Part shown: piece after piece, positions 9,535 through 53,936 of the stretch
Position numbering within the stretch: the stretch's first letter is position 1
How the letters are laid out: each line of letters starts with the position of its first letter
NCBI GenBank assembly: GCA_964522405.1
Contig: CAZFTR010000006.1
Coordinates: forward strand, 2,430-66,429
Source of the DNA: an uncultured Gammaproteobacteria bacterium
GTDB lineage: Bacteria > Patescibacteriota > Patescibacteriia > Magasanikbacterales > UBA922
Reading direction: 5' to 3'
DNA: 64,000 nucleotides
Made by a program: the position numbers and the translations under genes
The notes under the pieces: model-generated
The model's input: only the letters and a program-made list of their open reading frames with translations
What the model was told of the DNA's origin: nothing
Database searches by the model: none

Positions 9535-9543
9535 AAAATAATT

Positions 9544-10737: not shown

Positions 10738-10743
10738 AAAATT

Positions 10744-12246: not shown

Positions 12247-12314
12247 ATGAGAATAAGTTTATATTTTTTTAAGGAAATGTGTTTTTGGTATATTAAGTGT
12301 GATATAATGTAGGT

Positions 12315-12749: not shown

Positions 12750-12753
12750 ATAT

Positions 12754-13446: not shown

Positions 13447-13455
13447 AGAATAATT

Positions 13456-15336: not shown

Positions 15337-15346
15337 TTAGAAAAAT

Positions 15347-15974: not shown

Positions 15975-16700
15975 ATGAATTTAAAAAAATATTTTAAAAC
16001 ATTTTTGTATTTATCAAAAGAGGCTTTGTTTCCTCTTTTTTGTATCTCTTGTTCAGCTGAGGGTGATATTTTATGCCAGACTTGCTACATAGCCCTTGAG
16101 ACATATGCTGTTTTTGCCTGTCCTGTTTGTGGTCTCAATAATAATACAGGAGAGGTTTGTAAAAAGTGCTTGTCAGATTCATTTCTACAAAAACATCTTG
16201 CTCTTGGTAGATTTTCAGAAGATTCAATAATACAAAAATTATTGTATGAATATAAGTATAATTATGTCTTGGATATTTTGAAAATTTTTGAGAAATTAAT
16301 TGATAATTTTATTGATAGATATAAGAGTTTTTTTCTTGAAATTGATTTTATTGTTTCAGTTCCACTTCATAGGAGGCGTTTTGCAGAAAGGGGATTTAAT
16401 CAAGCAGATGACCTTGCTTTGGTTTTAGCTTCTAAGATTGATCGGCCTGTCTTGGATTCAGTCTTAAAGAGGATTGTAAATACTTCTCAACAAGCCAAAT
16501 TAACCAAGACCGAAAGACAGAAAAATATAGATAGCGCTTTTGTTATAAACCAAAAAAATTCTCTAAATTTAGCCAATAAATCATTATTGTTAGTTGATGA
16601 TGTTTTAACCACTGGCTCAACTATGCAAGCTTGTGCCAGGCAGTTCAAGGATAATTTCAAGGCAGTTAAGATACGGGCATTTACCTTGGCTAGAGGTTGA
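15975..16700 (+). CDS. comFC: ComF family protein (ComFC-like phosphoribosyltransferase)
   Basis: 241 aa; N-terminal CxxC...CxxC zinc finger and C-terminal PRTase motif LLLVDDVLTTGSTM. Confidence 0.7.
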   Translation: MNLKKYFKTFLYLSKEALFPLFCISCSAEGDILCQTCYIALETYAVFACPVCGLNNNTGEVCKKCLSDSFLQKHLALGRFSEDSIIQKLLYEYKYNYVLDILKIFEKLIDNFIDRYKSFFLEIDFIVSVPLHRRRFAERGFNQADDLALVLASKIDRPVLDSVLKRIVNTSQQAKLTKTERQKNIDSAFVINQKNSLNLANKSLLLVDDVLTTGSTMQACARQFKDNFKAVKIRAFTLARG

Positions 16701-18296: not shown

Positions 18297-20294
18297 ATGA
18301 AGTTTGACCTAAAGTCTTTTTTAGATAAAAAAAAGAATATCAAGATTTCATGGAGAAGGATAGGAATAGCCCTTGCTTTTTTTGTTGTCTTGATTTCGGT
18401 TTTACTTTTTGGATTAATTTCTTATGCTCAGGGTTATAAAGATCGCGTTTCCCCTGGTGTGCATGTCGGATCTATTTCCATAGGTGGAATGGATCGTGCA
18501 GAACTGAATAGATTTTTGGAAACCATGAAAGACAAACTCTTCAAAGATGGAATACATATTTCTTATTCAGTTCTTGATCAGGAAAAATCATTTGTTATTG
18601 ATCCTTTAGATCAGGAGAATCTTTTGAATGCAGAGTTGGACACAGAGCTAGCTGCTGATCAGATTATCAATTATGGGAAACATGGAAGTACCTTGGTCAG
18701 GTCAATTTCAACAGTTTTTTCGAGAGTTAGACAGCCAGAGATCAATTTAAGTTCTGTTTCTTTGAACAGGAGTAGGCTATTGGAATTAATTGATCAAGGT
18801 ATAAATGGTCATGAAGTCAAAGCCAAAAATGCTGAGTTGATTATTGATTCTGTCGAACCTCTCAAATATACAATTACTGATTCTCATCCTGGAATAGCAT
18901 TTGAATACAGTGATGCAGCTGGACAGGTTTTATCTTCTTGGTCAAAATTGTCTGTGCCTGATATTAAAGTTGCTACCAATATTGATCAGCCTCTAATTGC
19001 CACCAAAGATCTTGACAGTATTGAAGAAAAATTAGAAATGATATTTGAGGTAGGTCCGCATTTTATACATTACCAATATCCCGATAGTAAAAAAGAGCAA
19101 GTTTGGAAAATTTCTAAGCAGAAAATCGCAGAATTCCTTGTGCCTCAAATAAGTGTTAATAATTTGGTAATACTTGGACTTGCTCCTTCTTCAACTATAG
19201 AATTTATAGAGTATGAAATAGCTGATTTAGTTGAAACTGAGTCTCGCGATGCAATTTTTGAGTTGAATTCTGAAGGTAAAAAAGTTGTTGATTTCCAAAG
19301 TTCTTTATATGGTGTTGGCATTGACAGAGAACAGACTTATGCTGATATAAATTCAGCAATTTGGTCCAGATTTTTAACTGAAATGGAGATTTCTACCAGC
19401 ACAGATCTTACTGTTCAGGTTGTTGATCCGGATTTGAAACTTGAAGATGCTAATGATCTCGGAATAAAAGAAAAGTTGGGGAGTGGCTTTTCAAATTTTT
19501 CAGGAAGTCCTAGAAATCGTATTTTAAATATTAAAAATGCTGTTTATAATAAACTTCATGGAACTCTTGTTCCTCCTGAAGAAGAATTTTCATTAGTAAA
19601 TTCTCTCAGACCTTTTACTCTAGAGGCAGGGTATTTGCCAGAGTTGGTTATAGTCGGAGATAGAATCAAGCCGGAAGTTGCCGGAGGTTTATGTCAAGTT
19701 GGTACAACAATTTTTAGAGCAACTATGAATTCTGGAATGCCAATTACTCAGAGAGTTAACCATGGTCTAGTTGTTGGCTATTATAACGATCCTTCAAATG
19801 GAAATCCGGGTACAGATGCCACTATTTATGATGGCTGGCCGGATTTTAGATTTAAAAATGATACAGGTTCTCATATTCTCATAACTGTTTCTATGAATGT
19901 AAGCACTGGACATCTCGAATTTGCTATGTGGGGCACAAGTGATGGTAGAAAAGGGAGTTATACCCCACCAAAAGTATCCAAATGGATCCCAGTAGGTGAG
20001 TACAAAGAAATTATAACAGATGACCTTGAGCCTGGAGAAAAAGAATGTCAGAGCGCGCATCCGGGAGCAGTTGCTTCATTTACCTATATTCGGGAATTGG
20101 CAAATGGAGAAAAAGAAGAAAGAGTATTTAATAGTAGATATAGAGCAGTTCCAAAAACTTGTTATATTGGCCGAGAAGAAGAAAAAGAATGTCAAGAAGA
20201 TGATGAAGAATGTGTAGTTGATGAAATTGCCGAAGAAGAGGATGAAAATAACGAAAATTCAGATTCTCCTCTAAACCCAGAACAAATAGGTTAA
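18297..20294 (+). CDS. VanW-domain protein with N-terminal TM and acidic C-terminal tail
   Basis: 665 aa; VanW signature GGLCQVGTTIFRATMNSGMPITQRVNHG; terminal ECQEDDEECVVDEIAEEEDENNENSD. Confidence 0.7.
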   Translation: MKFDLKSFLDKKKNIKISWRRIGIALAFFVVLISVLLFGLISYAQGYKDRVSPGVHVGSISIGGMDRAELNRFLETMKDKLFKDGIHISYSVLDQEKSFVIDPLDQENLLNAELDTELAADQIINYGKHGSTLVRSISTVFSRVRQPEINLSSVSLNRSRLLELIDQGINGHEVKAKNAELIIDSVEPLKYTITDSHPGIAFEYSDAAGQVLSSWSKLSVPDIKVATNIDQPLIATKDLDSIEEKLEMIFEVGPHFIHYQYPDSKKEQVWKISKQKIAEFLVPQISVNNLVILGLAPSSTIEFIEYEIADLVETESRDAIFELNSEGKKVVDFQSSLYGVGIDREQTYADINSAIWSRFLTEMEISTSTDLTVQVVDPDLKLEDANDLGIKEKLGSGFSNFSGSPRNRILNIKNAVYNKLHGTLVPPEEEFSLVNSLRPFTLEAGYLPELVIVGDRIKPEVAGGLCQVGTTIFRATMNSGMPITQRVNHGLVVGYYNDPSNGNPGTDATIYDGWPDFRFKNDTGSHILITVSMNVSTGHLEFAMWGTSDGRKGSYTPPKVSKWIPVGEYKEIITDDLEPGEKECQSAHPGAVASFTYIRELANGEKEERVFNSRYRAVPKTCYIGREEEKECQEDDEECVVDEIAEEEDENNENSDSPLNPEQIG

Positions 20295-22417: not shown

Positions 22418-22458
22418 ATATCTATTTTCACATTTATAATTTAGTATAAATTACAAAT

Positions 22459-22862
22459 GTGGACCTCCTTTCTCCTTGTTTTGTCCACGCTTGTTCACGC
22501 CATCATCTGACCGTCTTCGAAGTTGAGGTCGGTCGCGAAGAGCGCGAAGAAGCAGGTGGCGAACATCATGCCTGTGGCCCAGCTGTCCGGAGTCAGCACC
22601 GAGGCGCAGAAACCGAAGGACAGCATCAAGTGCATCCAGCTCCTGTTCCTAACCAGGATCCAGGCCAGCATAATGCCGAGGAAGATGACCACGACGCTAA
22701 TCAGGATCTGTCCGATGGGCGGATTGCCGGTTGCTGCCACGATGAGCTCGGGCAGGATCAGGCCGATGAGGGCCATGACGAACGCTCCAGCCTGAGCGTT
22801 GGCATTATCAGAGTCCATTTTCCCTCCCAGGATCTCTCATTGACCCTTAAAGAACCCTAGCA
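22459..22862. other. High-GC island 2 (compositionally foreign segment)
   Basis: ~60% GC block between nrnA and smc; one ORF with strong RBS. Confidence 0.6.
22495..22818 (-). CDS. Small polytopic membrane protein (3-4 TM), GC-rich foreign ORF
   Basis: 107 aa hydrophobic; GGGAGGG Shine-Dalgarno 4-5 nt upstream of ATG on minus strand. Confidence 0.45.
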   Translation of the reverse strand: MDSDNANAQAGAFVMALIGLILPELIVAATGNPPIGQILISVVVIFLGIMLAWILVRNRSWMHLMLSFGFCASVLTPDSWATGMMFATCFFALFATDLNFEDGQMMA

Positions 22863-22952
22863 AAGCATTATATATGGATTGCCAGAGTTTGTCAATAATG
22901 ATATAATTTTAGCAAAATCAATTGTTTTTAATTGAGATTTTCGTGATTATTT

Positions 22953-26396: not shown

Positions 26397-26431
26397 TGTA
26401 GAAGTGAATTTAATAAAGGATGTGAGCACGA

Positions 26432-28069
26432 GTGGCGTGCTTGTATCCCCTTAGAGTTCATTTCACCGTAAAGAGTAGGGAGAGTTCCTTGAGAAGACAT
26501 CCAGGAAGGCGGAAAAGGGTAGTCGCCAAGTTCGGCGGCAGCTCGGTGGCTTCGGCAGTCATGCTGCTCACCATCTCCGAGATCGTAAAAGACCGGCGAC
26601 GGCGGCAGCGCGATTGGATCGTGGTCTCGGCTGCGGGCAAGCGCAGGCAGGTCAAAGGTGATGTAAAAGTCACTGATCTGCTGATCATCTTGCAGAACTT
26701 GATGGAGGACAGCACGCCCAATGACCACCAGGTCAAAGCGTCAGACTTCCAGACGGTCTGCAAGTGGGCGGGCGGCGAGAACAACCTGAGCGTGGACACA
26801 CTCTGGGAATTCATTGCCGAGCATCATCGCCAGATCGCCAGTCATGACGAGATCAACTTCGACATCGAGCCCATCCTCGGCAAGATCAAGAACGAGATCG
26901 TTACCAAGAAGGGTCGAGCATTCACTGTCAGCCGCGGCGAGTACCTTATGGCGTGCATCGTGGCTCAAGTGCTCGGTTACGAGTTCGTTGACGCGGCTCA
27001 GTTGGTCAAGTTCGACGTCGACCAGGCTGGCAACGTTCGGCTCAACGAGCACGAGACCAAGAAGCAGATCCAGGCTCACTGTCTGGGACACAAGTGCGTC
27101 ATCCCCGGCTTCTACGGCTCGAGCATCGAGAACCAGGATCAGATTCTGGTCTTCTCTCGTGGTGGTTCGGACATCTCGGGGGCGCTGATCGCTGCAGCAC
27201 TTTCGACCGACGTCTACGAGAACTGGACCGATGTGCCTGGCGTGGCCATGGCTGATCCTCGGTTCTTCGGAAAGAACGGCCGACGCTGGGTCAAGTGGAT
27301 CTCGGAGATCAGCTACCGAGAGCTTCGTGAAGCAGTTTACGCCCAGGTCCTCCACGAGGACGCCGTTCAGCCGGTTCGCAAGCACGGGATCCCCATCAAC
27401 ATCCGTTGCACTCTGCGTCCTGATCACCCCGGAACCATGGTGGTGCGAGATCGTCGACCTAACGAACGCCTGGTGCAGATCATCGCGGGCCGTAGTGGCT
27501 TCGTGAGTCTGTGCATTGGTCGGGACGAGAGCAACGACGAGATCGGCTACGCAGCTACCATCCTCGAGGTGCTCAAGGCTGAGGGGATTTGGTTCCACCA
27601 CGTGGCGACCAGTATCGATTCGATCAGTGTCATCATCCCTGCCGAGGCACTGAGCAATGGCAAGCTTCGGGACGCGATTCAGGCCATTCGAGATCAGGTC
27701 GAGCCTGACCGTCTGGTTCCGCTCGACGATTTGGCGCTGATCTGCCTGGTGGGCGACCAGGTGGGTGTCAACTCCAACAAGGTCCTGGCCTATGCTCACG
27801 CCGGGCTCTGGAACGCTGGCATCGAGGGGGTGCGTTTGGTCGAGATGGGGTCGTCTCAGCAGAACGTTATCGTCGGAGTCAACAAGTCTGAGCTCGAGGA
27901 CGCCATACGTGCTCTGCACGACGTGTTCGCCAGCTCTACGTTCTCGGGCAAGCTGCTGGCGCTTGGACGTGCCCGGCTTCGGCTGATGCGTCCGGGAACT
28001 GTCCTCACTCGAGCGGGCAACAAGCTCGGACGGTTGGTGCGAATGGCCAAGTTGCGCCGACAGGCCTGA
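26432..28069 (+). CDS. lysC: Aspartate kinase (amino-acid kinase domain + two ACT domains) with arginine-rich N- and C-terminal extensions
   Basis: 545 aa; KFGGSSV, WIVVSAAG, SRGGSDISGALIAAALSTDVYENWTDVPGVAMADPRF, C-terminal ACT repeats; true start may be TTG at 26489 preceded by AGGGAG. Confidence 0.7.
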   Translation: MACLYPLRVHFTVKSRESSLRRHPGRRKRVVAKFGGSSVASAVMLLTISEIVKDRRRRQRDWIVVSAAGKRRQVKGDVKVTDLLIILQNLMEDSTPNDHQVKASDFQTVCKWAGGENNLSVDTLWEFIAEHHRQIASHDEINFDIEPILGKIKNEIVTKKGRAFTVSRGEYLMACIVAQVLGYEFVDAAQLVKFDVDQAGNVRLNEHETKKQIQAHCLGHKCVIPGFYGSSIENQDQILVFSRGGSDISGALIAAALSTDVYENWTDVPGVAMADPRFFGKNGRRWVKWISEISYRELREAVYAQVLHEDAVQPVRKHGIPINIRCTLRPDHPGTMVVRDRRPNERLVQIIAGRSGFVSLCIGRDESNDEIGYAATILEVLKAEGIWFHHVATSIDSISVIIPAEALSNGKLRDAIQAIRDQVEPDRLVPLDDLALICLVGDQVGVNSNKVLAYAHAGLWNAGIEGVRLVEMGSSQQNVIVGVNKSELEDAIRALHDVFASSTFSGKLLALGRARLRLMRPGTVLTRAGNKLGRLVRMAKLRRQA

Positions 28070-28258
28070 TCTACAATTCTACTCGTTACGCTGCGGACTA
28101 GACGCTGACCAGTAGGATTCGCTGCGCAAGCAGTATCGGCCCCAAGCTTACGGGGGAGCTGGGGAAGGCGGGCGCGAATGTTACTCCGCAGACATTCGCA
28201 AGCCCTTTCTAGAAATTTTTCATAAGTTTTTATAAAGGGCTTAATCGGAGGATGCCAA

Positions 28259-28537
28259 ATGGCAGAAGAAGAAAAGAAGAAAGAGTTCGCAGTCGTCTCA
28301 GTGATGATCTGCACTGATCAGGTGGTCTTGTCGCTTCGTGATGGCGACTCATGCGGCGGGTTCCCGCCCTGCGACGCCAAGATTGCGAAGGGCGACTGGA
28401 TCGAGTCGGACGGCGTTGTCTCGTTCGAGGGTCAGGAGGTTCAGATCCAGGACGGACTCGAGGGGATCGCTGAGATCTACATCATCGGTGGAAGGGTGCG
28501 CCAGAACCGAGGTCGGATCACGACCATGGTTCCTTAG
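28259..28537 (+). CDS. Small hypothetical protein (92 aa), GC-rich foreign ORF
   Basis: GGAGG 7 nt upstream of ATG; no recognised family (contains SCGGFPPCD). Confidence 0.4.
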   Translation: MAEEEKKKEFAVVSVMICTDQVVLSLRDGDSCGGFPPCDAKIAKGDWIESDGVVSFEGQEVQIQDGLEGIAEIYIIGGRVRQNRGRITTMVP

Positions 28538-28627
28538 TCTGCATTGGCTACACCAACATCCACTCCGGGGCGACATTGCGCTCTCCTCGGGGTGGAAAGG
28601 AAAAATTTTATGCTATAATAAAAATAT

Positions 28628-29854
28628 ATGAATCAAGAATTTAAAATAGGTAATCATAAAGCAACAGATATAGTAGAAAAATTTGGAACGCCTACCTATG
28701 TTTATGATTTGCAGGTTGTCCGAGATAGGGTAGAGGACTTGCAAAAAAGAATTGGTGCTTATCCTAAAACTGAGTTTCTTTATGCTGTAAAAGCAAATTA
28801 TAATCCTTTTTTGGTGGGTGAGATTATAAATTTGGGTTGTGGAATTGATGCAGTTTCAGCAGAAGAGGTCTTGCTTGCTATTAAATGCGGAGCTGATAAA
28901 TCCAAAATCATGTTCACTGGAAACAATATGACAGATGAGGAGATGAGAAGTGTTCATGAGCTTGGAGTTTTACTAAATATTGGGTCACTTTCGCGTTTAG
29001 AGAAATACGGAAAGGAGTTTCCAGGAAGCAAGGTAAGCATTAGATTTAATCCAAATATTGGAATTGCCTCTCATGAAAGCAATATTACCGGTGGGCCTGA
29101 TTCGAAATTCGGTATCTCATTTAAAAAAGTAGAAGAAGTAAAAGAAATCGCAAACAAGTATAACTTGAACATAATTGGTGTTCATCAACATATTGGTTCT
29201 GGATGGTTACGTTTGCGCGAACCAATTCTTGCTCTTGATGTTATTCTGGAGATTGCTGAGCAATTTTCAAATCTTGAATTTGTCGATGTTGGTGGTGGTT
29301 TTGGTATTCCCTATAAGCCAGAGCAAAATCGTCTAGACATTGGGCTTTTGGGAGAACAAATCAATAAACGCTTTTCAGCGTTTTGTCAGAAATATGGTCG
29401 CGAAATCACACTTAGGTTTGAGCCTGGTAGATATGTAGTGGCTGAATCAGGTCATTTACTAACTAGAGTAAATACAATAAAAGAATCAATTAGCAGAAAA
29501 ATCATTGTTGGAACAGATACCGGAATGCATCATCTGGTGCGAGTAGCCATGTACGATTCATATCATCCCATAGTTAATGCCAGTAATCTGGATGGTATGA
29601 TGCAAGAGTATGATGTCACTGGAAATATTTGTGAATGTGCTGATTTTTTTGCAAGAAACCGAATGCTTCCTGAAATCCGAGAGGGGGATCTTCTTAGTAT
29701 AGATATTGCCGGAGCTTATGGAATGGCCATGGCATATAATTATCAGTTTAGAGGGTTGCCAGCAGAAATAATGATAGATGGAGATCAATTGGTTGAGATC
29801 AGAAAAAGAGAAACTTTTGATGACCTATTTTCTAGATACAATTATGAAACTTGA
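28628..29854 (+). CDS. lysA: Diaminopimelate decarboxylase (PLP-dependent, fold-type III)
   Basis: 408 aa; YAVKANYNP PLP-lysine motif, GGGFGIPY, Orn/DAP decarboxylase architecture. Confidence 0.85.
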   Translation: MNQEFKIGNHKATDIVEKFGTPTYVYDLQVVRDRVEDLQKRIGAYPKTEFLYAVKANYNPFLVGEIINLGCGIDAVSAEEVLLAIKCGADKSKIMFTGNNMTDEEMRSVHELGVLLNIGSLSRLEKYGKEFPGSKVSIRFNPNIGIASHESNITGGPDSKFGISFKKVEEVKEIANKYNLNIIGVHQHIGSGWLRLREPILALDVILEIAEQFSNLEFVDVGGGFGIPYKPEQNRLDIGLLGEQINKRFSAFCQKYGREITLRFEPGRYVVAESGHLLTRVNTIKESISRKIIVGTDTGMHHLVRVAMYDSYHPIVNASNLDGMMQEYDVTGNICECADFFARNRMLPEIREGDLLSIDIAGAYGMAMAYNYQFRGLPAEIMIDGDQLVEIRKRETFDDLFSRYNYET

Positions 29855-44612: not shown

Positions 44613-47600
44613 ATGATTAAAATTGATAAAAACCAACTATTAGTATATTATACATCTACTATGTCCAAGTTCACACATCTTCATGTGCACTCTCATTACT
44701 CGCTTTTAAATGGTCTTACCAAGATAAAACCGCTGGTTAAAGCTGCCAAAAAGCGGGGATTTGATGCTCTTGCGCTTACTGATTATGGATCAATGTATGG
44801 GGCTATTGAGTTTTACCGAGCTTGCCAGGCAGAGGAGATTAAGCCGATTATTGGATTTGAAGCTTTTGTGGCTCCTCGCAGTAGACATGACAAAGATCCT
44901 GAACATGACAAAGAAGTATATAATCTAACACTTCTGGCAGAAAACTATGATGGATATAGAAATCTGATGAAATTATCTTCTCTTGGTCATCTTGAAGGTT
45001 TTTTCAATGAAAAACCGAGAATTGATTTAGAGCTTCTTGAAAAATATCATGATGGGGTTATTGTGCTTTCCGGATCAATAAAAGGTCAAATTCCACAATT
45101 TCTCAAAAATAACAAAATAGAGGAAGCAACTGAACTTGCCAAAAAATACCATGATATTTTGGGACAAGATAATTTCTTTCTTGAGCTCCAGGATCATCCG
45201 GCAATTTCCGGGCAAGTTGATGTGAACACAAAACTTATTCAATTATCAAAGGATTTAAATATTCCGTTGGTGGTTACTCGAGATGTTCACTATCTGGAGC
45301 CAACCGATGCTGATGCTCAAGATATTCTTACTTGTATTGGAAATGGTTGGAAAGTTGGTCAGCCTAACAGAGAAGATTATCGTCAAGTTGATCGATCTCT
45401 AAATACTGCTCAAGATATTTCTTCTCGTTTTCGCCATGTTTCAGAGGCTATAGAAAACACAGGAAAAATTGCTGATCGAGTCAACATAGAAATTGAACTG
45501 GATAATTGGCATTTTGCTCCGGTTGACCTGCCGCCTGGAAAAACAGCAGATCAGCATTTGCGAGATGAGGCTTTTCGTTGTGTTACAGATTTTTATCCGG
45601 AGTTGACCGATGAATTAACCAAGCGTATTGATTATGAATTAGATATTATCAAGACAAAAGGTTATTCTCCATATTTTATCTGTGTTGCAGACTATGTTCG
45701 TTATGCAAAACAAAATGGAATTGTAGAATCAACTCGTGGGTCTGCTGCCGGTTCTTTGGTTTCTTATGTTTTGGGAATTACTACAGTTGATCCGATGAGA
45801 TTTAAACTTCCATTTGAAAGATTTTTAAATCCTTTTAGGCCCAGTCCACCTGATGTTGATACAGATTTTGCTGATGATCGTCGCGATGAAATGATTCAGT
45901 ATGTTACCAAGAAATATGGTTCAGATAAAGTTGCCCAAATCATTACTTTCGGAACCATGGCAGCGCGTGCCAGTGTTCGAGATGTGGGAAGAGCAATGGG
46001 CTTTGCTTATGGTTTTTGTGACCAGGTTGCAAAATTAATTCCTCCGGGAGCGCAAGGTTTTCCTATGACTATAGAAAGGGCTCTAAAAGAAGAGCCTGAT
46101 TTAAAAAAACTCTACGATACCAATGAAGATGTAAAAAAATTGCTTGATCTTGCGCAACAAGTAGAAGGATGTGCTCGCCATACTTCGATTCATGCAGCTG
46201 GAGTGGTTATCTCACCAACTCCACTTATAGATTTTTCTCCGGTTCAAAGAGAAACCGGAGGAGATAGGATTACCACCCAATATGAAATGCATTCAGTAGA
46301 GGCTGCTGGAGTTTTAAAAAACGATTTTCTGGGAATTAGAAATCTGGCAATTCTTGGAAACGCAGTTGAGATCGTAGAAAAAACTACCGGAGATAAGATA
46401 GATATTTATAATCTTCCACTTGATGATCAGGATACATTTGAGAAATTAGCACGAGGAGAAACAATGGGAGTTTTTCAGCTCTCAGGTTCTGGAATGACCA
46501 GATGGCTCAAAGAACTAAAGCCCAATCGAATTGAAGATATTATGGCCATGGTGGCGCTCTATCGTCCAGGCCCAATGGATGTGATTCCAGATTATATTTA
46601 CCGAAAATATCATCCGGAGGCAGTCAGCTATCCTGACCCAAGATTGGAGAATATTCTTGAGGCGTCTTATGGTCTTTTGGTTTATCAGGATGACGTCATG
46701 CTTACTGCTATTGAACTGGCAGGTTATGATTGGATGGAAGCAGATAAATTTCGAAAAGCCATGGGAAAGAAAATTCCCGAAGAAATGGCCAAACAGAAAA
46801 TTAAGTTTTATCAGGGATGCCGTGATCATGGAAATTTAAAGAAAGACTTAATTGATGATCTTTGGAAAGCAATTGAACCCTTTGCTGCTTATGGATTTAA
46901 CAAGGCTCATGCAGCCAGTTATGGAATTGTTGCTTATCAAACTGCATATATGAAAGCACATTATCCGGTGCAGTACATGACATCAGTTCTTCAAGCAGAA
47001 GCAAAAGATACTGAGAAAGTTGCAGCAATTGTTCATGAGTGTGATCGCATGGGAATTGATGTGCTTCCTCCGGATGTAAATGAAAGTTTTAGAAATTTTG
47101 CCATGGTTTCCAAGCAAGGTGAGAAAGGAAGAATCCGTTTTGGAATGACAACGATAAAGGGTCTTGGTGAACATATTTCCGGAGTTATTTATCAGGAAAG
47201 AAAAAAACATGGTCAATATACCAGTTTGGAAAATATGTTAGAGAGAATTGATGATAAAGATCTCAACAAAAGATCACTCGATGCTCTGATTAAATCAGGA
47301 TCACTGGATTGTTTTGGACATGACAGGGGAGTGCTTCTGGCAAATATTGAAAATATATTATTTTTTGTAAAACAGTTTCGAGAAAAATCAACCAATAATC
47401 AGGATTCGCTTTTTTCCGGAACAGCAATAGCATTTGATGAGAAAGTGGTTTTAAAACCGGCAGAAGAAGCAACCATGGATGAAAAATTAGTTTGGGAAAA
47501 AACACTTTTGGGTTTGTATGTTTCTTCACATCCATTTGCGCCATTTGAAGAAAAATTAAAAGATAAGGTGATACCACTTAACCAAATAGAAGACGGTGAA

Positions 47601-48134
47601 AGAGATGCTTGGGTTACAGTTGGTGGGGTAATAGATAAAGTTACCAGAAAAATTACTAAAAAAGGTTCAGTAATGCTTTTTGTAACCCTGGCTGACAGGT
47701 CCGGTTCAATGGAGATGTTAGTTTTTCCAAAGAAGTTTGAAGAAACCAAAGATCTTTGGGAAGAGGGAAAAGTAGTTTGTATAGTTGGAAAAACCCCCAA
47801 AGAAGAAGGGGATAATAAAATATTTGTAGAAAATGTACATGTATTAAACCTAGAAAATGCTGAGCAGGTTAGCCGACATGTCTCGCTTGGAAGTTCAGTT
47901 GAAGCCAAAAAAGAAAAAATCAAAACCGCTCAAATTTCTATTTCAAAAGAAGAATTAAAATCTCTTACAGATGAATTAAAAGAATTATTTGAAAAATTTC
48001 CAGGGCAGTATTTATTATACCTGGATATTCTCGGACAAAAAGTAAAAACTCAGACTAAGATTGAAGCGAGTGAGGAGTTTGAAAAAGAACTTGAAGAGAT
48101 AATTGGAGAAGGCAAGTTTAGGAAGTTTGAATAG
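44613..48134 (+). CDS. dnaE: DNA polymerase III alpha subunit
   Basis: 1173 aa; N-terminal PHP domain HLHVHSHYSLL, polymerase core, OB-fold C-terminus. Confidence 0.9.
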   Translation: MIKIDKNQLLVYYTSTMSKFTHLHVHSHYSLLNGLTKIKPLVKAAKKRGFDALALTDYGSMYGAIEFYRACQAEEIKPIIGFEAFVAPRSRHDKDPEHDKEVYNLTLLAENYDGYRNLMKLSSLGHLEGFFNEKPRIDLELLEKYHDGVIVLSGSIKGQIPQFLKNNKIEEATELAKKYHDILGQDNFFLELQDHPAISGQVDVNTKLIQLSKDLNIPLVVTRDVHYLEPTDADAQDILTCIGNGWKVGQPNREDYRQVDRSLNTAQDISSRFRHVSEAIENTGKIADRVNIEIELDNWHFAPVDLPPGKTADQHLRDEAFRCVTDFYPELTDELTKRIDYELDIIKTKGYSPYFICVADYVRYAKQNGIVESTRGSAAGSLVSYVLGITTVDPMRFKLPFERFLNPFRPSPPDVDTDFADDRRDEMIQYVTKKYGSDKVAQIITFGTMAARASVRDVGRAMGFAYGFCDQVAKLIPPGAQGFPMTIERALKEEPDLKKLYDTNEDVKKLLDLAQQVEGCARHTSIHAAGVVISPTPLIDFSPVQRETGGDRITTQYEMHSVEAAGVLKNDFLGIRNLAILGNAVEIVEKTTGDKIDIYNLPLDDQDTFEKLARGETMGVFQLSGSGMTRWLKELKPNRIEDIMAMVALYRPGPMDVIPDYIYRKYHPEAVSYPDPRLENILEASYGLLVYQDDVMLTAIELAGYDWMEADKFRKAMGKKIPEEMAKQKIKFYQGCRDHGNLKKDLIDDLWKAIEPFAAYGFNKAHAASYGIVAYQTAYMKAHYPVQYMTSVLQAEAKDTEKVAAIVHECDRMGIDVLPPDVNESFRNFAMVSKQGEKGRIRFGMTTIKGLGEHISGVIYQERKKHGQYTSLENMLERIDDKDLNKRSLDALIKSGSLDCFGHDRGVLLANIENILFFVKQFREKSTNNQDSLFSGTAIAFDEKVVLKPAEEATMDEKLVWEKTLLGLYVSSHPFAPFEEKLKDKVIPLNQIEDGERDAWVTVGGVIDKVTRKITKKGSVMLFVTLADRSGSMEMLVFPKKFEETKDLWEEGKVVCIVGKTPKEEGDNKIFVENVHVLNLENAEQVSRHVSLGSSVEAKKEKIKTAQISISKEELKSLTDELKELFEKFPGQYLLYLDILGQKVKTQTKIEASEEFEKELEEIIGEGKFRKFE

Positions 48135-48136
48135 AA

Positions 48137-48308
48137 CTGTCATCTCGAGCGGAATAAGGCCGAGCAAAGCCCTGTTGCTCGCGAGCGACAGGGCGAGGCG
48201 AGAGCGAATGAAGTGGGGGAATCCCTTGGTAAATAAGTGAAGTGGGAAGTAAATCAAGGGATCTCTCGACTTCGTTTTTCTTTCAGAAAACTCCGCTCGA
48301 GATGACAA
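48137..48308. repeat. 172-bp element bounded by 17-bp terminal inverted repeats (ctgtcatctcgagcgga / tccgctcgagatgacaa) with nested internal inverted repeats
   Basis: 16/17 IR match; internal near-perfect 13-bp hairpin gccctgttgctcg/cgagcgacagggc; nested cgagag/ctctcg and atcccttg/caagggat; duplicated tgaagtggg. Confidence 0.5.
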
Positions 48309-48312
48309 TATA

Positions 48313-48350
48313 AAAAGCACCCCCTGAATTACTTCAGAGGGTGTTTGATT
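48313..48350. terminator. Bidirectional intrinsic terminator-like hairpin (accccctgaa-ttac-ttcagagggt + TTTGATTTTG)
   Basis: Seen directly. Confidence 0.4.
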
Positions 48351-48424
48351 TTGAGTGCCCGCCGTCCGTGTCGCTCGGGGCAGGCGCGGGGGCGGGGTGG
48401 GGAGGAGGGAATGGTGGTGGGGGC

Positions 48425-48877
48425 TCAGCGGTTGAGTTTGGGTTTCTCGGGGCGGATCTCGATTGTCCAGCGTGGTCCCAGCCAGGACCAGCGCTTGACC
48501 GCCAGGTAGTCGTGGCTGTCGATCCTGCGATCCTTGGACGAGTCCCTGACGTGGATGATCTTGATCACTGTGCGTCCGAATCGGTCGACCCGGACGTAGA
48601 GACGCCAGAAGGGTTCCAGTTCGGCGCTGTCTGAGGCGTTCTTGATCATCTCCGCGGCAGCTTCGATGCTGACGCTGACATTGCTGTCGGGCGCGATGAT
48701 CAGTACGCGCTCTGAGGGGTCGGTGCCGGCGGCGTAGCCGACGATCTTGGAGTCGCTGAACTCCGTGAACGTCGCCACCCCAACCTTGCGGTTGAGAAAC
48801 GCCACGATTCTTCTCAGTCTCGCCTCCAGTCTCTCTGTTGTTTCGCTTCTCTTGGGGTTATCGAACATTGACCTCAT
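48425..48877 (-). CDS. Hypothetical protein (150 aa), GC-rich foreign ORF
   Basis: Coding-like GC3-rich codon usage; GGAGGA immediately upstream of ATG; no recognised family. Confidence 0.45.
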   Translation of the reverse strand: MRSMFDNPKRSETTERLEARLRRIVAFLNRKVGVATFTEFSDSKIVGYAAGTDPSERVLIIAPDSNVSVSIEAAAEMIKNASDSAELEPFWRLYVRVDRFGRTVIKIIHVRDSSKDRRIDSHDYLAVKRWSWLGPRWTIEIRPEKPKLNR

Positions 48878-48948
48878 TCCTCCGGAATCACTAGCCGGCT
48901 CATGCCGGGCAAACTGATATTGCGGCTATATTACCGCTTGCTTGGATT

Positions 48949-49215
48949 TTAGTCAAATGCTACATCCCCATTTTCTTTTGCTTTTTTGTCTTCATATGGA
49001 GCAATCTGGCGACGGTAGAATTCCAGCTTGGCTGATTCAAGTGCACCGATAAGTTCATTGTAGTCTGCGTATCTTCCTTCTCCGCGTAGTTTTAGAAGAA
49101 GTTTGGTAATTGTATAATTTATTTCTCCTGCTCTTTGGTCTGTATTTATGATTTCCGCGAGGGCATTAATTTTTGGATCTAGGCGATCTCGGTCTTCTTG
49201 TAGAATGTAGGGCAT
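48949..49215 (-). CDS. Hypothetical protein (88 aa)
   Basis: AT-rich native-like ORF. Confidence 0.4.
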   Translation of the reverse strand: MPYILQEDRDRLDPKINALAEIINTDQRAGEINYTITKLLLKLRGEGRYADYNELIGALESAKLEFYRRQIAPYEDKKAKENGDVAFD

Positions 49216-49310: not shown

Positions 49311-50507
49311 TTACAATTTAGTTAAATCTGTTTTTATTCTATTAAGCAATAGTGGTGCAATAAAAGTTGAAAGCGCCATTAATACTAATAATAAATATAA
49401 ACCTGACGAATCAAAAGTTGTTATAAAAAGCAAAGGAACAAAACTAAGTGATCGACCGGTCAGGTTTACTGTTTCTCGTATAACCAGATATTCAACTCGG
49501 TGGGTGATATGATCTTTGAGTCCATGGAGTAGATTTTGATAATAAACTCTTCCGACTAGAGTTATGGTTGGTTCCAGCATTTCTTTTATTGAACCATAAA
49601 TAATATAAATCACAAAGCCTGGCCAAGCAATAAGTGAAAGAGTTGCAGCTGATAATAATCCTCCTGAAAACAAAGCTAATTTTTTATAATATTTATAGTG
49701 AAAATATTTTCCAATAATTAAGGTAGTAATAATAGACCAAAATGTGAAAAAAGAAATCCAGCTTCCAACTTTGAATTCGCTGGCTAAAATTGTTAACAGA
49801 AAAATAGGAATTATTTTTCGTATTGCTCCTATCTGTCCAAAATTAATAAAGAAATAGTTTACTGTTGCCAATTTGAGGTCTGTTTTCTTTTTTACGATTT
49901 TGAGAGTTTCAAAAAGATGAAATTTATTTTTTGTGTGAACATGAGTTTGTATATTACCCAGCAAAAGACAGGCAAAAATACCCGCAAGTCCAAGCAAGAA
50001 AATGTTTCCATAACCAAAACCAAAAGCATTGATACTGATTAGAAAACCACCCAGAGCCGGGGCAAGTAGATTTGCTACAGTAGTTAGTGATCTGTCTAGT
50101 CCTGCATAATTACCACGATTTTTGGTGTGAGTTAGATCAAAACTTAAGACATGATAGCTAAGCCAGTACATGGCATTGAAAATTCCATATCCAACAGCAA
50201 CAGGTATAATATGATTGGCAACATTGTCGCCAACAATAAACATTAGAAACAAGTAAAGCCCCATTCCCAGTGTTCCTATATTTTTGATCGATCTCACATA
50301 GCCTTTTTTGGCTAAGGGAGCGAAAAGCCAGAAGAATATAGTATGGGAAATATAAAAAGCAATTTCAAAGATGGCAATCTGGGAAAGATCATTGGTAAGA
50401 TTCCAAATATAAAGACTTATAAAAAGCCTAAAAAGAGTTCTGGTGAATACCCAGAAAGTGTGCGAAACCAGGAGTTGCTTGAGAACAGGAAGAGAAATAT
50501 TATTCAT
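49311..50507 (-). CDS. MFS-type transporter
   Basis: 398 aa, 12 predicted TM helices in two 6-TM halves. Confidence 0.65.
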   Translation of the reverse strand: MNNISLPVLKQLLVSHTFWVFTRTLFRLFISLYIWNLTNDLSQIAIFEIAFYISHTIFFWLFAPLAKKGYVRSIKNIGTLGMGLYLFLMFIVGDNVANHIIPVAVGYGIFNAMYWLSYHVLSFDLTHTKNRGNYAGLDRSLTTVANLLAPALGGFLISINAFGFGYGNIFLLGLAGIFACLLLGNIQTHVHTKNKFHLFETLKIVKKKTDLKLATVNYFFINFGQIGAIRKIIPIFLLTILASEFKVGSWISFFTFWSIITTLIIGKYFHYKYYKKLALFSGGLLSAATLSLIAWPGFVIYIIYGSIKEMLEPTITLVGRVYYQNLLHGLKDHITHRVEYLVIRETVNLTGRSLSFVPLLFITTFDSSGLYLLLVLMALSTFIAPLLLNRIKTDLTKL

Positions 50508-51552
50508 AAACCTTCCAGTTTGGATTTGCTTTTACCGCTTTCCAGTCATTAAATTCTTTTTTTGAGGCTTTGAAATATGCAGCGGCTCCGATCATGGCAG
50601 CATTGTCCATGCAATATTTAGGCTCAGGGTAGAGAACTGGAATATCTAGAGCTGACTTTAGAGTTTTTCTAAGTTTTTTGTTTGCAGAAACTCCACCAGC
50701 GACAATTATAGTTTTTGGTTGATATTTTTTTGCGGCTCTAAAGGTTTTTTTTACCAAGACATCAACTATCGCTTGTTCAAAACTGGCACAGAAATCATCT
50801 ATAGTGATTTGGTTCTGATTAGATTGTCCAAACCAAGTTGAAATTTTTCCAAGAGGGTTAGTTCTAAGAGTTGCCAATTTATTATCTCGCAACCAATAGA
50901 GCGCAGAGGTTTTAAGACCGGAAAAACTAAAATCAAAATTCTTTTTATCCAGCATGGGGCGCGGAAATGGAATTGCGTTAGCATTTCCATTTTCAGCATG
51001 TTTAGAAATTTTTGGTCCACCCGGATAATCCAATCCCAGAAGTTTGGCAACCTTATCAAAAGCTTCACCAGCAGCATCGTCTGTAGTTTTTCCAATTAGT
51101 TCGTATTGGCCATGATTTTTCATCAAGATTAGTTCTGTGTGCCCACCACTAACTATAAGTGCAATAGCTGGAAATTCAATTTTTTGATTATCGAGAAGAA
51201 CCGAGTGGATATGTCCTTCGATATGATTTATAGAGATAAAAGGAATATCCCAGAGATAGCTCAGAGCTTTTGCAGCTTCTGTTCCAACCAATAGTCCAGT
51301 GATAAGCCCTGGGCCAGTTGTGGCTGCGATAATATCGGGTTTTTCCTGGTTTTTCATTACTTCTTCAATCACCGGCATGATGTTTTCTGCGTGGGCTCTT
51401 CCAGCTACTTCCGGAACTACACCGCCATATTTTTGGTGAATGTCAATTTGACTAGCGGTTTTTTCTGAGATAATTTCAAAAATGCCTTGGTCAATTTTGA
51501 GCAGAGCAACAGATGTGTCGTCACATGAGCTTTCAATGGCTAAGATTTTCAT
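50500..51552 (-). CDS. tsaD: tRNA N6-adenosine threonylcarbamoyltransferase
   Basis: 350 aa; MKILAIESSCDDTSVAL N-terminus, metal-binding HxxGH (HIEGH), Kae1/TsaD family. Confidence 0.9.
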   Translation of the reverse strand: MKILAIESSCDDTSVALLKIDQGIFEIISEKTASQIDIHQKYGGVVPEVAGRAHAENIMPVIEEVMKNQEKPDIIAATTGPGLITGLLVGTEAAKALSYLWDIPFISINHIEGHIHSVLLDNQKIEFPAIALIVSGGHTELILMKNHGQYELIGKTTDDAAGEAFDKVAKLLGLDYPGGPKISKHAENGNANAIPFPRPMLDKKNFDFSFSGLKTSALYWLRDNKLATLRTNPLGKISTWFGQSNQNQITIDDFCASFEQAIVDVLVKKTFRAAKKYQPKTIIVAGGVSANKKLRKTLKSALDIPVLYPEPKYCMDNAAMIGAAAYFKASKKEFNDWKAVKANPNWKVYE

Positions 51553-51640
51553 ATTTTTATTCTACAAAACAATTCTAACAGAAAGAGGGGTTTTTTTCTA
51601 GAGTAAATAAAAAACTACCTTAAATAAGATAGTCTTCTGG

Positions 51641-52200
51641 GCGTCCTCCTTTTGACGCCTCCTTGGTTTTGGGTAAAAGAGCCTGGGATTGGATGTTCAC
51701 CAGAACGGCGAGCAATTGCGGCAGGGCACCGCGGTGGTGGGTTAGTCGTTGTCGAACTCTCCGTCGATGGGTTCGTGCGGGTAGGCGCCTCCCTCCAAGA
51801 GCTCTTTCTTCAGGGTGAGGAGGGTCTGCTCGCCGAGCTCGCCGTCGGCGATGAGGTCGGTGTCCTCCAGTCCCTCGGAGAGGATGAGCATGATCAGGTA
51901 GGCCTGGATCTGCTTGAGCGTCGGCATCCCGTCGGGCAGACTGACCTCGTCGTCGTACATGCGCTGCACGGTGGCGCGGTCGATCTGGCCGGTGACCTCG
52001 AGGCCGTCCGTGGCCTCCTGGTACTGGCGCAGCGCCAGCTCGGTCTGCTCACCGAGCTCGCCGTCGGCGATGAGGTTCTCGGTGTTGTGTCCCGCGACGA
52101 TCAGGAAGGCCTGAACGCCTTTGATTCTTTTGTTGCTGAGCTCGATAGTCATGGTCCGTGCAATCTCCGTAGTTGTTCCGTCCGATTCTGAATCGAACTT
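51641..52200. other. High-GC island 5 (compositionally foreign segment)
   Basis: ~62% GC block between tsaD and the tRNA region. Confidence 0.6.
51742..52152 (-). CDS. Protein with two tandem peptidoglycan-binding (PG_binding_1-like) repeats, GC-rich foreign ORF
   Basis: 136 aa; repeated IADGELGEQTELALRQYQ / IADGELGEQTLLTLKKEL motifs matching the DG-FG--T--AV--FQ PG-binding consensus. Confidence 0.5.
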   Translation of the reverse strand: MTIELSNKRIKGVQAFLIVAGHNTENLIADGELGEQTELALRQYQEATDGLEVTGQIDRATVQRMYDDEVSLPDGMPTLKQIQAYLIMLILSEGLEDTDLIADGELGEQTLLTLKKELLEGGAYPHEPIDGEFDND

Positions 52201-52280
52201 TAAGACTGCTTTATTATATATAGAATTTATTATTTGTCAAGGTTTTTAGTTTGGTTTTATAAAATATATTTATAAAAAAA

Positions 52281-52306
52281 CAACAGAACCAAAAATGGTT
52301 CTGTTG
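52281..52306 (-). terminator. Intrinsic terminator (caacagaacc-aaaaat-ggttctgttg, U-run on minus strand)
   Basis: 10-bp perfect stem; minus-strand T7 follows; terminates element X. Confidence 0.5.
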
Positions 52307-52340
52307 CAAGGAATAAACGGTAAACGTATGTCATACCGTT

Positions 52341-52470
52341 TGGTAGCCCCAAGGGGAATCTCAGTCGCTACTTCGTGCTCCTGGGAAAACCTTCTGGTTT
52401 TCCCAACCTTTCCTCAGCATGTAAGGGGGCTCTGCCCCCTTACCATCCCCCAGTTCGATTCCCTCACCAA
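52341..52470 (-). ncRNA. tRNA-like structured element X ending in a copy of the tRNA-Glu 3' end plus CCA
   Basis: 3' end ...attccccttggggctacca duplicates 18 nt of the tRNA-Glu T-arm/acceptor; two internal hairpins (gtaaggggg-cagag-cccccttac and gggaaaacc-agaa-ggttttccc); own downstream terminator; no intact cloverleaf. Confidence 0.3.
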
Positions 52471-52475
52471 TCTAC

Positions 52476-52513
52476 AATAAAAGACAACCAACTTTCAGTC
52501 GGTTGTCTTTTAT
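52476..52513. terminator. Bidirectional intrinsic terminator after tRNA-Glu (aaagacaacc ... ggttgtcttt with A/T runs)
   Basis: Seen directly. Confidence 0.55.
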
Positions 52514-52515
52514 TG

Positions 52516-52587
52516 TAGCCCCAAGGGGAATCGAACCCCTGTTTTCTGGATGAAAACCAGATGTCCTAACCACTAGACGATGGGGCC
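52516..52587 (-). tRNA. tRNA-Glu (anticodon UUC)
   Basis: Minus-strand cloverleaf GGCCCCATCGTCTAGTGGTTAGGACATCTGGTTTTCATCCAGAAAACAGGGGTTCGATTCCCCTTGGGGCTA; anticodon loop TTTTCAT. Confidence 0.85.
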
Positions 52588-52760
52588 GTCTTAGTTTCTA
52601 TTTAAAATAGATGAGAAGATTATATCTGTTTTTTGAAATTTAGTCAAGATTTTGATTATATTTCCTCCACAAGACACTAAAGCCATTACTTTGCGAAGGA
52701 AGACAGACAGTTCAGAATATTCCTTATTTTAGGCAAAAATCGCTTTTCCACACTTATCTA

Positions 52761-52789
52761 TTGACTAAAAACACAAAAACAAGTAATAT
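52761..52789 (+). promoter_or_regulatory. Near-consensus promoter (TTGACT-17-TAATAT) and ~170-nt structured leader upstream of rplJ (possible L10 autoregulatory leader)
   Basis: Hexamers seen directly; leader contains hairpin ctccgat-gtatat-atcggag; leader function inferred from conserved rplJL regulation. Confidence 0.35.
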
Positions 52790-52971
52790 ATAGCTCACAT
52801 ACCGCAGACAGTAGCTCTCCGATGTATATCGGAGTTAAATACGCTACCGAGGTGACAAATACTTTCTTGACTGAGAGTATACAAAGGTCGCGCCTAAACG
52901 TTTCTGTGGTTGAATAAACCACTTTTTTGTTTCTATTTTTTTAGAAACACAATATAACTTAATAATAAGTT

Positions 52972-53493
52972 ATGGCAAAAACTAAACAATTAAAAGAACA
53001 AGCTATACAAGATTTGGTAGATAATATTAAATCTGCTAAATCAGTGGTATTTGCTAATTTTCAAGGCTTAAAAGTTAGTGAGTCAGAAGAACTTCGTGGC
53101 AAATGTCGTGAACAGAAAATTGACTATCTTGCTAGTAAAAAAACTTTGCTTAAAAAAGCATTGTCTGAAGCTGGCTTTGATGTTGACACTAAGAGCTTTG
53201 AAGGTGGTGTTGCTGCTGTATTTGGTACAGAGGATGAAGTAGCTCCTGCTCAAGTTATTGCTGGCTATGCCAAAGACCACGAAGTTGTAAAAATCTTCGG
53301 TGGAATTTTGGAAGGCAATTTTATTGATGCAGCAAAAGTTACTGAACTTTCTAAATTACCAAGCAAGCAAGAACTTTATGCAAAATTGGTTGGATCAATC
53401 AATGCTCCAGTTTCTGGTTTTGTAAATGTACTTGCTGGCAATTTGCGTGGCTTAGTTGGTGTTCTTAATTCTATTAAAGAATCAAAAGCTTAA
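52972..53493 (+). CDS. rplJ: 50S ribosomal protein L10
   Basis: 173 aa; uL10 family N-terminal domain and L7/L12-binding C-terminal helix. Confidence 0.85.
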
Positions 53494-53516
53494 TAAAAAT
53501 ATTAATATATAAATTT

Positions 53517-53936
53517 ATGACTGAAGAAACACAAGAAAAAACTCCAGTGGAAGTTCCAGCAAAATTCAAATCTCTTGTAGAAGAGATTGAAAAAATGTCT
53601 GTTCTTGATCTTTCTGAATTGGTTTCAATTCTAGAAGACAAGTTTGGTGTTAGTGCTGCTGCTCCAGCTATGATGATGGCTGGTCCTGCAGCTGGCGCTG
53701 GTGATGCTGGTGCTGCTGAAGAAAAGACTGAATTCAATGTTGAGTTAACTGACATTGGTGGAAACAAGATTGCAGTTATCAAAGCTGTTAAAGCTGCAAC
53801 TGGTCTTGGTCTTGCTGACGCTAAAGCTCTTGTTGATGGCGCTCCTGCTACTATTAGGGAAGCTGTTAAAAAAGAAGAGGCTGAAGCTCTTAAAGCTTCT
53901 ATTGAAGAAGCTGGTGGTAAAGCTGAACTTAAATAA
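53517..53936 (+). CDS. rplL: 50S ribosomal protein L7/L12
   Basis: 139 aa; Ala-rich hinge and conserved C-terminal domain ...[22 protein letters not shown]...EAGGKAELK. Confidence 0.9.

Follow-up and report, generated by a model that had tools for sequence, protein, structure and literature searches.

PG_binding_1 modules occur in cell-wall enzymes such as SleB (6tci), CtpB (4c2f), the Streptomyces Zn DD-peptidase (1lbu) and gp144 of phiKZ, in which the same three-helix bundle is joined to a catalytic domain and, in the cellular enzymes, exported. Other proteins consist mainly of PG_binding_1 repeats, among them a putative peptidoglycan-binding protein of C. difficile (5tv7) and large proteins of 350-1250 amino acids (aa) with 4-9 complete repeats, some of which also carry an M23 peptidase. 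A PG_binding_1-like fold acts, without peptidoglycan, as an intramolecular inhibitor in the pro-domains of matrix metalloproteinases; the fold can thus serve protein-protein contacts. Genomic islands at the 3' ends of tRNA genes are recognized by atypical base composition, a position 3' of the tRNA, an exact duplicate of the tRNA end and a site that is empty in relatives. Here we analyse a GC-rich islet in a 64-kb window (the whole stretch of DNA under study, from contig CAZFTR010000006.1), where a single gene for a 136-aa PG_binding_1 protein lies between tsaD and a tRNA-Glu gene.

The islet protein is a new member of this known domain class. Its domain shares the core motif Q..L ... DG..G..T ... 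A...Q with the enzyme modules and superposes on them at 1.6-2.3 Å over about 60 residues, but the protein is stand-alone, leaderless and strongly acidic, and its second copy of the module is truncated. Like the multi-repeat proteins it is built mainly from PG_binding_1 repeats; unlike them, it and its relatives keep to a fixed one and a half repeats in about 130 aa. The matrix-metalloproteinase pro-domains were not among the sequence or structure matches retrieved, and no cysteine-switch motif is evident in the islet protein. The islet also displays the features of a tRNA 3'-end island listed above, yet it holds one gene in about 0.6 kb, the tRNA-end repeats lie beside that gene rather than around it, no integrase was found, and most loci of the protein family are away from tRNAs.

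We favour, with a probability of roughly 0.6, the interpretation that the islet is a single-gene PG_binding_1 unit in the tRNA-Glu/tsaD spacer of a Magasanikbacteria-like chromosome, that it was most likely acquired horizontally and that the scar at the tRNA is a separate feature. The GC-rich gene unit would have entered a spacer that normally measures 40-50 nucleotides (nt), and a separate site-specific recombination at the 3' end of tRNA-Glu would have left an 18-nt duplicate beside it.

Comparison with related genomes bears directly on the insertion. The window is a chromosome segment of 37% GC, from an ultra-small, Magasanikbacteria-like bacterial genome (Patescibacteria), with housekeeping genes, including one for an SMC-type chromosome-segregation protein, and three tRNAs. 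Its TsaD is 64-65% identical to those of two Candidatus Magasanikbacteria genomes, L002 and L003; genome and metagenome scans aimed at closer relatives of the host and at a precise empty site found no TsaD relative above 65% identity. The gene order in L002 is tRNA-Glu, tsaD, dnaE, a small open reading frame (ORF) and pheT, with tRNA-Glu at 63-135, tsaD starting at 177 after a gap of 41 nt and dnaE ending 24 nt after tsaD. In L003, tRNA-Glu (9878-9952) and tsaD (10001) are separated by 48 nt. The order dnaE-tsaD-tRNA-Glu is common to L002 and L003/L092, and neither L002 nor L003 has a gene between tRNA-Glu and tsaD. Given that this spacer spans about 960 nt in the window as against 40-50 nt, without the gene, in the related Magasanikbacteria, the gene sits in a lineage-specific insertion into a conserved backbone, directly adjoining the 3' end of tRNA-Glu at a site that is empty in both relatives. 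The window also has extra genes between tsaD and dnaE, including a GC-rich ORF at 48425-48877, and the same slot in L003 holds a GC-rich prs gene.

The inserted DNA differs sharply in composition from its surroundings. In a 200-nt profile, a GC fraction of about 0.37 gives way to values of 0.53-0.69 over the stretch from about 51600 to about 52200. The GC-rich 136-aa ORF described by the first-pass annotation, an earlier reading of the sequence alone, is confirmed at 62.8% GC, and its first, second and third codon positions have GC fractions (GC1, GC2 and GC3) of 0.67, 0.31 and 0.90. Neighbouring genes in the window have GC3 values of 0.16-0.29, so the excess is one of synonymous sites and not an effect of amino-acid composition; GC2 is host-like.

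Boundaries this abrupt in a metagenome-assembled contig could betray a chimera, in which reads of a GC-rich organism were joined into an AT-rich contig, and the first-pass annotation had recognized that such a join would undo any reading of the island as integrated DNA. However, the independently assembled Logan contig SRR31802803_5888 (1283 nt) is 100% identical to positions 51530-52812, a stretch that runs from the end of tsaD through the entire islet and the tRNA and takes in both compositional boundaries. On this evidence a chimera is extremely unlikely, and we rejected it. An AT-rich consensus promoter and a terminator arranged around the islet, and the recurrence of the islet layout in 11 loci from unrelated samples, argue in the same direction.

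The signals around the gene (Table 1) indicate that the islet is a single-gene transcription unit with its own predicted promoter, a 5' stem-loop in a predicted 5' untranslated region (UTR) of about 53 nt, a ribosome-binding site and a GC-rich 3' tail. The ORF on the opposite strand is most likely spurious, although it is longer than the islet ORF, because GC-rich DNA contains few stop codons and it is the minus-strand ORF that has Pfam, family and structural support. With an integron cassette in mind, we looked by inspection for attC-like core sites in the structured 3' tail, and none was evident.

Table 1. Annotated features of the islet, its tRNA-Glu flank and the adjoining host genes, in window coordinates.
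Feature	Position	Strand	Evidence or remark
dnaE	44613-48134	+	
tsaD	50500-51552	-	
GC-rich 3' tail past the stop codon (about 100 nt), ending in hairpin 51639-51660	51641-51741	-	
Antisense ORF, 179 aa	51652-52191	+	most likely spurious
Coding sequence of the 136-aa acidic protein (isoelectric point 4.1), no signal peptide	51742-52152	-	ORF call, Pfam, composition, AlphaFold2
Truncated second repeat, aa 78-120, helices 79-92 and 108-120, no third helix	51793-51921	-	internal alignment; conserved in family alignment A1
Complete PG_binding_1 domain, aa 8-65, helices 7-19, 35-47 and 59-67	51958-52131	-	Pfam, Foldseek, PDB profiles
GGAG ribosome-binding site, 12 nt before ATG	52165-52168	-	
5'-proximal hairpin of the 5' UTR, 8 bp	52180-52198	-	ViennaRNA fold
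Sigma-70-type promoter, TTGACA / 16-nt spacer / TATAAT	52213-52240	-	12/12 consensus matches
Intrinsic terminator, 12-bp stem then T-run	52280-52307	-	downstream of displaced tRNA end, upstream of islet promoter
Displaced tRNA-Glu 3' end (18 nt exact, 52343-52360), then encoded CCA	52341-52360	-	
GC-rich non-coding segment between the two tRNA-end copies, 154 nt	52361-52514	-	
tRNA-Glu (anticodon UUC), intact	52515-52587	-	ARAGORN; Rfam tRNA 68.1 bits
L10 and L7/L12 genes	52972-53936	+	

The first-pass annotation had described the protein as two tandem PG_binding_1 repeats. A search with the Pfam model PF01471, which it had proposed as a check, scores 41.4 bits (E 1.6e-10) against a cut-off of 23, over a single stretch that covers profile positions 3-57 of 57, and the N-terminal half alone scores 38.3 bits. 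The second copy is real but truncated: the C-terminal half alone reaches 12.8 bits (E 0.14), under the Pfam cut-off, whereas an internal alignment of aa 9-43 with aa 78-116 scores 78 as against 24.5 +/- 4.6 for shuffled sequences. The motif LIADGELGEQT occurs in both copies, where a 35-nt direct repeat encodes it; the two units (51823-51857 and 52042-52076) agree at 34 of 35 positions. The AlphaFold2 model built from the family alignment (predicted local distance difference test score, pLDDT, 90.8; predicted template-modelling score, pTM, 0.82) has three helices in the first half and two in the second. The protein is thus one full PG_binding_1 domain followed by a partial repeat, not two domains of Pfam grade.

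Structural and profile comparisons agree with this assignment. Foldseek aligned the model with the N-terminal domain of SleB (6tci) at a root-mean-square deviation of 1.6 Å over 58 columns, with 5anz at 1.9 Å and with 1lbu at 2.3 Å, and its matches include the PG_binding_1 domains of SltB3 and 5tv7; CtpB, phiKZ gp144 and an L,D-transpeptidase are among the PDB profile matches. The islet protein stays below the cut-off of every NCBIfam model. Pfam finds PG_binding_1 alone, with no muramidase, amidase or peptidase domain, and the Foldseek, PDB profile and PHROG results likewise support the earlier description of a peptidoglycan-binding module without a catalytic partner. We detected no signal peptide by inspection, as the N-terminus MTIELSNKRIKGVQ leads directly into helix 1; no in-frame upstream extension of the ORF is possible, and inspection revealed no hydrophobic leader in any family member. 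The activity suggested by these sequence and fold similarities is most likely the non-catalytic binding of peptidoglycan or of muropeptide-type ligands. Because an export signal is missing, the protein may meet its ligand in the cytoplasm, in the form of a cell-wall precursor or fragment, or it may be carried to the wall along a non-classical route.

PG_binding_1 is a common binding module of endolysins, and the comparison with phage endolysins and cell-wall enzymes that had been suggested earlier returned, besides SleB and CtpB, weak matches to phiKZ gp144 and to PHROG endolysin families (E 3e-5 and 1.6e-3), the latter only over the binding-domain part of the endolysin profiles, with BFVD structural matches mostly to endolysin-type proteins. 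We therefore entertained the possibility that the gene is the remnant of a prophage lysis module, an endolysin binding domain stripped of its catalytic domain. This is very improbable: tblastn gave no match in 50,697 phage or 72,556 plasmid records, a single-protein scan of IMG/VR gave none, no phage genes flank the islet or the family loci, and the two-repeat architecture of about 130 aa is conserved as an intact family with its own promoter.

The relation of the islet to the tRNA required closer analysis, as the first-pass annotation had seen in it the mark of tRNA-targeted integration of foreign DNA. The duplication of the tRNA-Glu 3' end on which that view drew is genuine. The terminal 18 nt have two matches in the window at up to three mismatches, the displaced copy and the end of the tRNA gene itself (52515-52532), and 0 of 100 shuffles gave two or more. 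CCA, encoded after the displaced copy, is also encoded after the tRNA-Glu of L003; the functional tRNA-Glu of the window is followed by CAA. The distance of about 200 bp given earlier between the ORF and tRNA-Glu fits the displaced fragment, which lies 190 nt from the start of the ORF, but not the tRNA gene, which lies 362 nt away. To judge from its sequence, the duplicate is a genuine scar of site-specific recombination at tRNA-Glu, for which it is the classical signature.

The 154 nt between the two copies of the tRNA end carry a 22-bp hairpin (52472-52518) and, at 52453-52469, an inverted piece of the 3' end of a different tRNA (...GTTCGATTCCCTCACCA on the plus strand), and the segment folds better than shuffled sequences (z scores of -3.4 and -4.3). 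Taken from 52343 to 52514, the region forms two 10-bp GC-rich hairpins and a closing stem from the two tRNA-end fragments, and may be a decayed attachment (att) region or a small RNA. At permissive thresholds Rfam returned only the tRNA, a sub-threshold L10 leader and noise, so that the segment has no Rfam family above threshold; ARAGORN found no tRNA or transfer-messenger RNA (tmRNA) in the region, and the 154-nt segment recurs neither elsewhere in the window nor in the 167 fetched loci.

If the gene were the cargo of an integrative element targeted to tRNA-Glu, from which the integrase and the distal attachment site had later been lost, the exact 18-nt duplicate with its retained CCA and the insertion directly 3' of the tRNA, at a site that L002 and L003 have empty, would be readily accounted for. 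Yet the tRNA-end repeats do not enclose the gene: they bracket the 154 non-coding nt, and the gene lies outside both copies, beyond a terminator and under its own promoter. No third copy of the tRNA end was found on the far side of the gene within the window at up to three mismatches. The integrase or recombinase gene that the first-pass annotation had recommended looking for did not turn up: in the 64-kb window, neither phmmer, run with a tyrosine integrase and a serine recombinase as queries against the six-frame translation, nor Pfam, run on 19 ORFs only, detected a recombinase of either type, in a search of limited sensitivity. A second family gene, P0037 in L084/L085, is likewise close to a tRNA-Glu(UUC), with about 110 nt separating it from the tRNA's 3' end; it is convergent with, and thus in opposite orientation to, the tRNA. 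Partial tRNA-Glu duplicates are present in L003 and L084. However, no att-like repeat flanks the gene in L085, and 10 of the 11 other family loci are not beside tRNA-Glu. On balance such an element is a distinctly unlikely origin for the gene. With the gene outside the repeats, we regard tRNA scar and gene islet as neighbouring but separate features and not as one integrated element. What survives of the earlier proposal is an insertion that looks foreign and truly stands beside a tRNA with a scar. Because of P0037, whose genome (L084) encodes a TsaD only 58% identical to that of the window, some link to tRNA-Glu is still conceivable, arising either from a common ancestor, with later loss from L002 and L003, or from targeting on more than one occasion.

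The partial duplicates next to tRNA-Glu in L003 (9783-9805) and L084 (845-856 and about 895-912) correspond to 5' parts of the tRNA, and suggest recurrent rearrangement at tRNA-Glu or unrecognized interrupted tRNA-like genes.

We traced the protein family by a word-indexed search of 5.8 billion proteins, which returned only the islet protein itself, and by a full HMMER search of 1.84 billion representatives, which returned 440 proteins at E <= 1e-3. Most of these, including the top of the list, are the large canonical multi-repeat PG_binding_1 proteins, but about 18 small homologues (126-183 aa) match from end to end in a single stretch, at 35-54% identity by HMMER and 31-41% over the family alignment A1. 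The small members are mutually 22-46% identical and share in that alignment the one-and-a-half-repeat layout, an acidic character, the absence of a leader and, in many cases, an aromatic-Pro-acidic motif close to the C-terminus. One of them bears the annotation 'peptidoglycan-binding protein [Candidatus Magasanikbacteria bacterium]'. The small members form a previously undescribed leaderless family that appears to be tied to genomes like those of the Candidate Phyla Radiation (CPR).

Comparison of twelve loci, the window and eleven other independent loci that we retrieved, revealed that the peculiar composition is a property of the family. All twelve are in lower-GC genomes among housekeeping neighbours, which in the other loci are comM (twice), pyrF-pyrE (twice), tsaD/tRNA-Glu (once), mraY, murG, folD-tsaE, ppdK and deoC. 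The gene has a GC3 of 0.57-0.98 in the eleven other loci, as against 0.25-0.58 for ordinary neighbours; the exceptions to this gap are GC-rich metabolic genes in L087, L090 and L091. In 12 of 12 loci the gene forms a single-gene unit with a near-consensus promoter, whose TTGAC-type -35 box stands 82-97 nt ahead of the start codon, and with a purine-rich ribosome-binding site; a 5'-proximal stem of some 6-8 bp, similar in position and different in sequence, is present in most. Averaged over the twelve loci, the GC fraction climbs from 0.28-0.33 in the promoter through 0.45-0.52 in the 5' UTR to 0.60 in the coding sequence, stays at 0.56-0.64 for the first 50 nt past the stop codon and drops to about 0.40 beyond. 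This GC excess, family-wide and extending over the whole transcription unit, is the one truly unexplained feature of the locus. Cell-wall genes (mraY, murG, a LysM-M23 peptidase gene and ftsW) lie near 4 of the 12 loci, which is suggestive at most.

Two of the family's genomes hold features of their own. In L078, the in-frame sequence past the TAG stop codon of P0074 (1031-1096) encodes TPGAVADVDLPPDGEGERKLV, which matches the C-terminal tail (VDLPSNGEGERNRL) of the longer members P0094 and P0144 and points to a recent nonsense mutation or to read-through of the stop codon; other members may keep relics of such a C-terminal extension in their GC-rich 3' tails. In L077, the genome of P0042, a large serine recombinase gene abuts and slightly overlaps a fragment encoding the C-terminal part of ComM (Mg-chelatase), the two together at 10511-12791, as expected if an integrated element had split comM; this arrangement adjoins but excludes the peptidoglycan-binding gene.

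Taken by itself, the family-wide GC excess could mean that the gene is an old, vertically inherited CPR resident whose GC content is maintained by selection on the mRNA or by GC-biased recombination rather than left behind by a donor. The excess persists in 12 of 12 loci despite mutual identities of only 22-46%, and it follows the 5' UTR, the coding sequence and the first 50 nt or so of the 3' tail between AT-rich flanks. The promoter and hairpin layout is conserved, some loci form synteny pairs, GC2 is host-like, and no member examined has the context of a GC-rich genome. On the other hand, L002 and L003, with TsaD identities of 64-65%, lack the gene at this site while the more distant L084 has one nearby, and the gene occupies different loci in different genomes. 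The highly expressed host genes for L10 and L7/L12 favour AT-ending codons (GC3 0.16-0.17), so ordinary translational selection does not favour a high GC3, and to our knowledge no mechanism is known for a GC bias maintained in this way. We regard long-term residence as a possible but unlikely explanation.

Absence from the closest relatives, differing loci between genomes and donor-like codon usage favour horizontal acquisition instead. Several observations weigh against this preferred interpretation. No donor lineage emerged from the searches of 5.8 and 1.84 billion proteins, where the closest relatives are at most 54% identical, and every family locus examined is in a lower-GC genome, none in a GC-rich one; these results do not establish a simple, recent transfer out of a GC-rich donor. 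The GC2 of 0.31 is low for a protein native to an organism of 65% GC, and partial synteny within the family (comM in L077 and L086, pyrF-pyrE in L087 and L091, tRNA-Glu/tsaD in the window and L084) hints at some vertical inheritance. As to function, the putative binding of peptidoglycan is assigned from homology only, and the absence of a leader from every family member fits poorly with a role located in the wall. The strain pairs that we compared for synonymous changes proved identical. A literature search found nothing on GC-rich islets, or on this peptidoglycan-binding family, in Patescibacteria or Magasanikbacteria; all it brought up was a description, in general terms, of frequent gene transfer in Patescibacteria (PMC12455944).

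The islet has counterparts elsewhere in the window. Four more sharply bounded GC-rich islets (1014-1519, 22443-22886, 26411-28619 and 48248-48929) have 54-58% GC against the 37% background, and their ORFs, with GC3 values of 0.73-0.82, encode putative membrane proteins of 97 and 107 aa, an aspartokinase of 545 aa that is accompanied by an ORF of 92 aa, and an orphan of 150 aa. TTGACA promoters lie directly upstream of the first two, and the small ORFs have no match in Pfam or PHROGs. The aspartokinase gene (26432-28069, plus strand; AA_kinase and ACT domains) stands beside an AT-rich diaminopimelate decarboxylase gene, lysA (28628-29854); no donor was identifiable for it, its best non-self match among 5.8 billion proteins being 42% identical. 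Related genomes have GC3-rich metabolic islets as well: prs in L003 (11125-12126), pyrF with pyrE in L087 (1507-2901) and L091 (6711-8084), where the pair adjoins the peptidoglycan-binding family gene in both genomes, and deoC in L090 (1440-2117).

It is conceivable, if improbable in our estimate, that the islet gene belongs to a class of GC-rich transcription-unit islets that stay GC3-rich over the long term in AT-rich, Magasanikbacteria-like CPR genomes. Candidates for such a class are the peptidoglycan-binding family, the aspartokinase and three small orphan ORFs of the window, prs (L003), pyrF/pyrE (L087 and L091) and deoC (L090). The cause would be either an unrecognized, integrase-independent exchange of cassettes from an unsampled GC-rich gene pool, for example that of the hosts of episymbionts, or a localized GC-biased process, and the class would not reflect a one-off transfer followed by gradual drift to the base composition of the host.

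Other regions of the window are recorded here for completeness. A cluster at 3208-15940 includes genes for a protein of 2108 aa, for a VirB4/TraG-type P-loop ATPase (13456-15336) and for several unannotated proteins, and is followed by a ComF-like phosphoribosyltransferase gene (15975-16700); it may be a type IV secretion or DNA-uptake region. A second, unrelated cell-wall-binding protein (18297-20294, plus strand; 665 aa), with VanW and PG_binding_4 domains, has normal host composition. The gene for a DUF6899 protein (48949-49215, minus strand; E 2.6e-29; 40% GC) lies just upstream of the GC-rich ORF of 150 aa, with which it may share a transcript. Upstream of rplJ, an L10 leader-like element (52784-52937, plus strand) scores 41.9 bits, just under the Rfam gathering score of 44.

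For annotation, the locus illustrates that a tRNA-end duplicate beside an atypical gene is not by itself proof of tRNA-targeted arrival. The protein alone adds little, being another non-catalytic PG_binding_1 protein, albeit in an undescribed family. The wider interest lies in composition: in 12 of 12 loci the gene of this fast-diverging family has synonymous sites far more GC-rich than its host genome, and several of the other single-gene GC-rich islets in these genomes encode metabolic enzymes that CPR bacteria usually lack. Should these islets reflect repeated capture from partner organisms, they could point to the hosts of these episymbionts; should the bias instead be maintained internally, they would represent gene-specific base composition of a kind that is unusual for bacteria.

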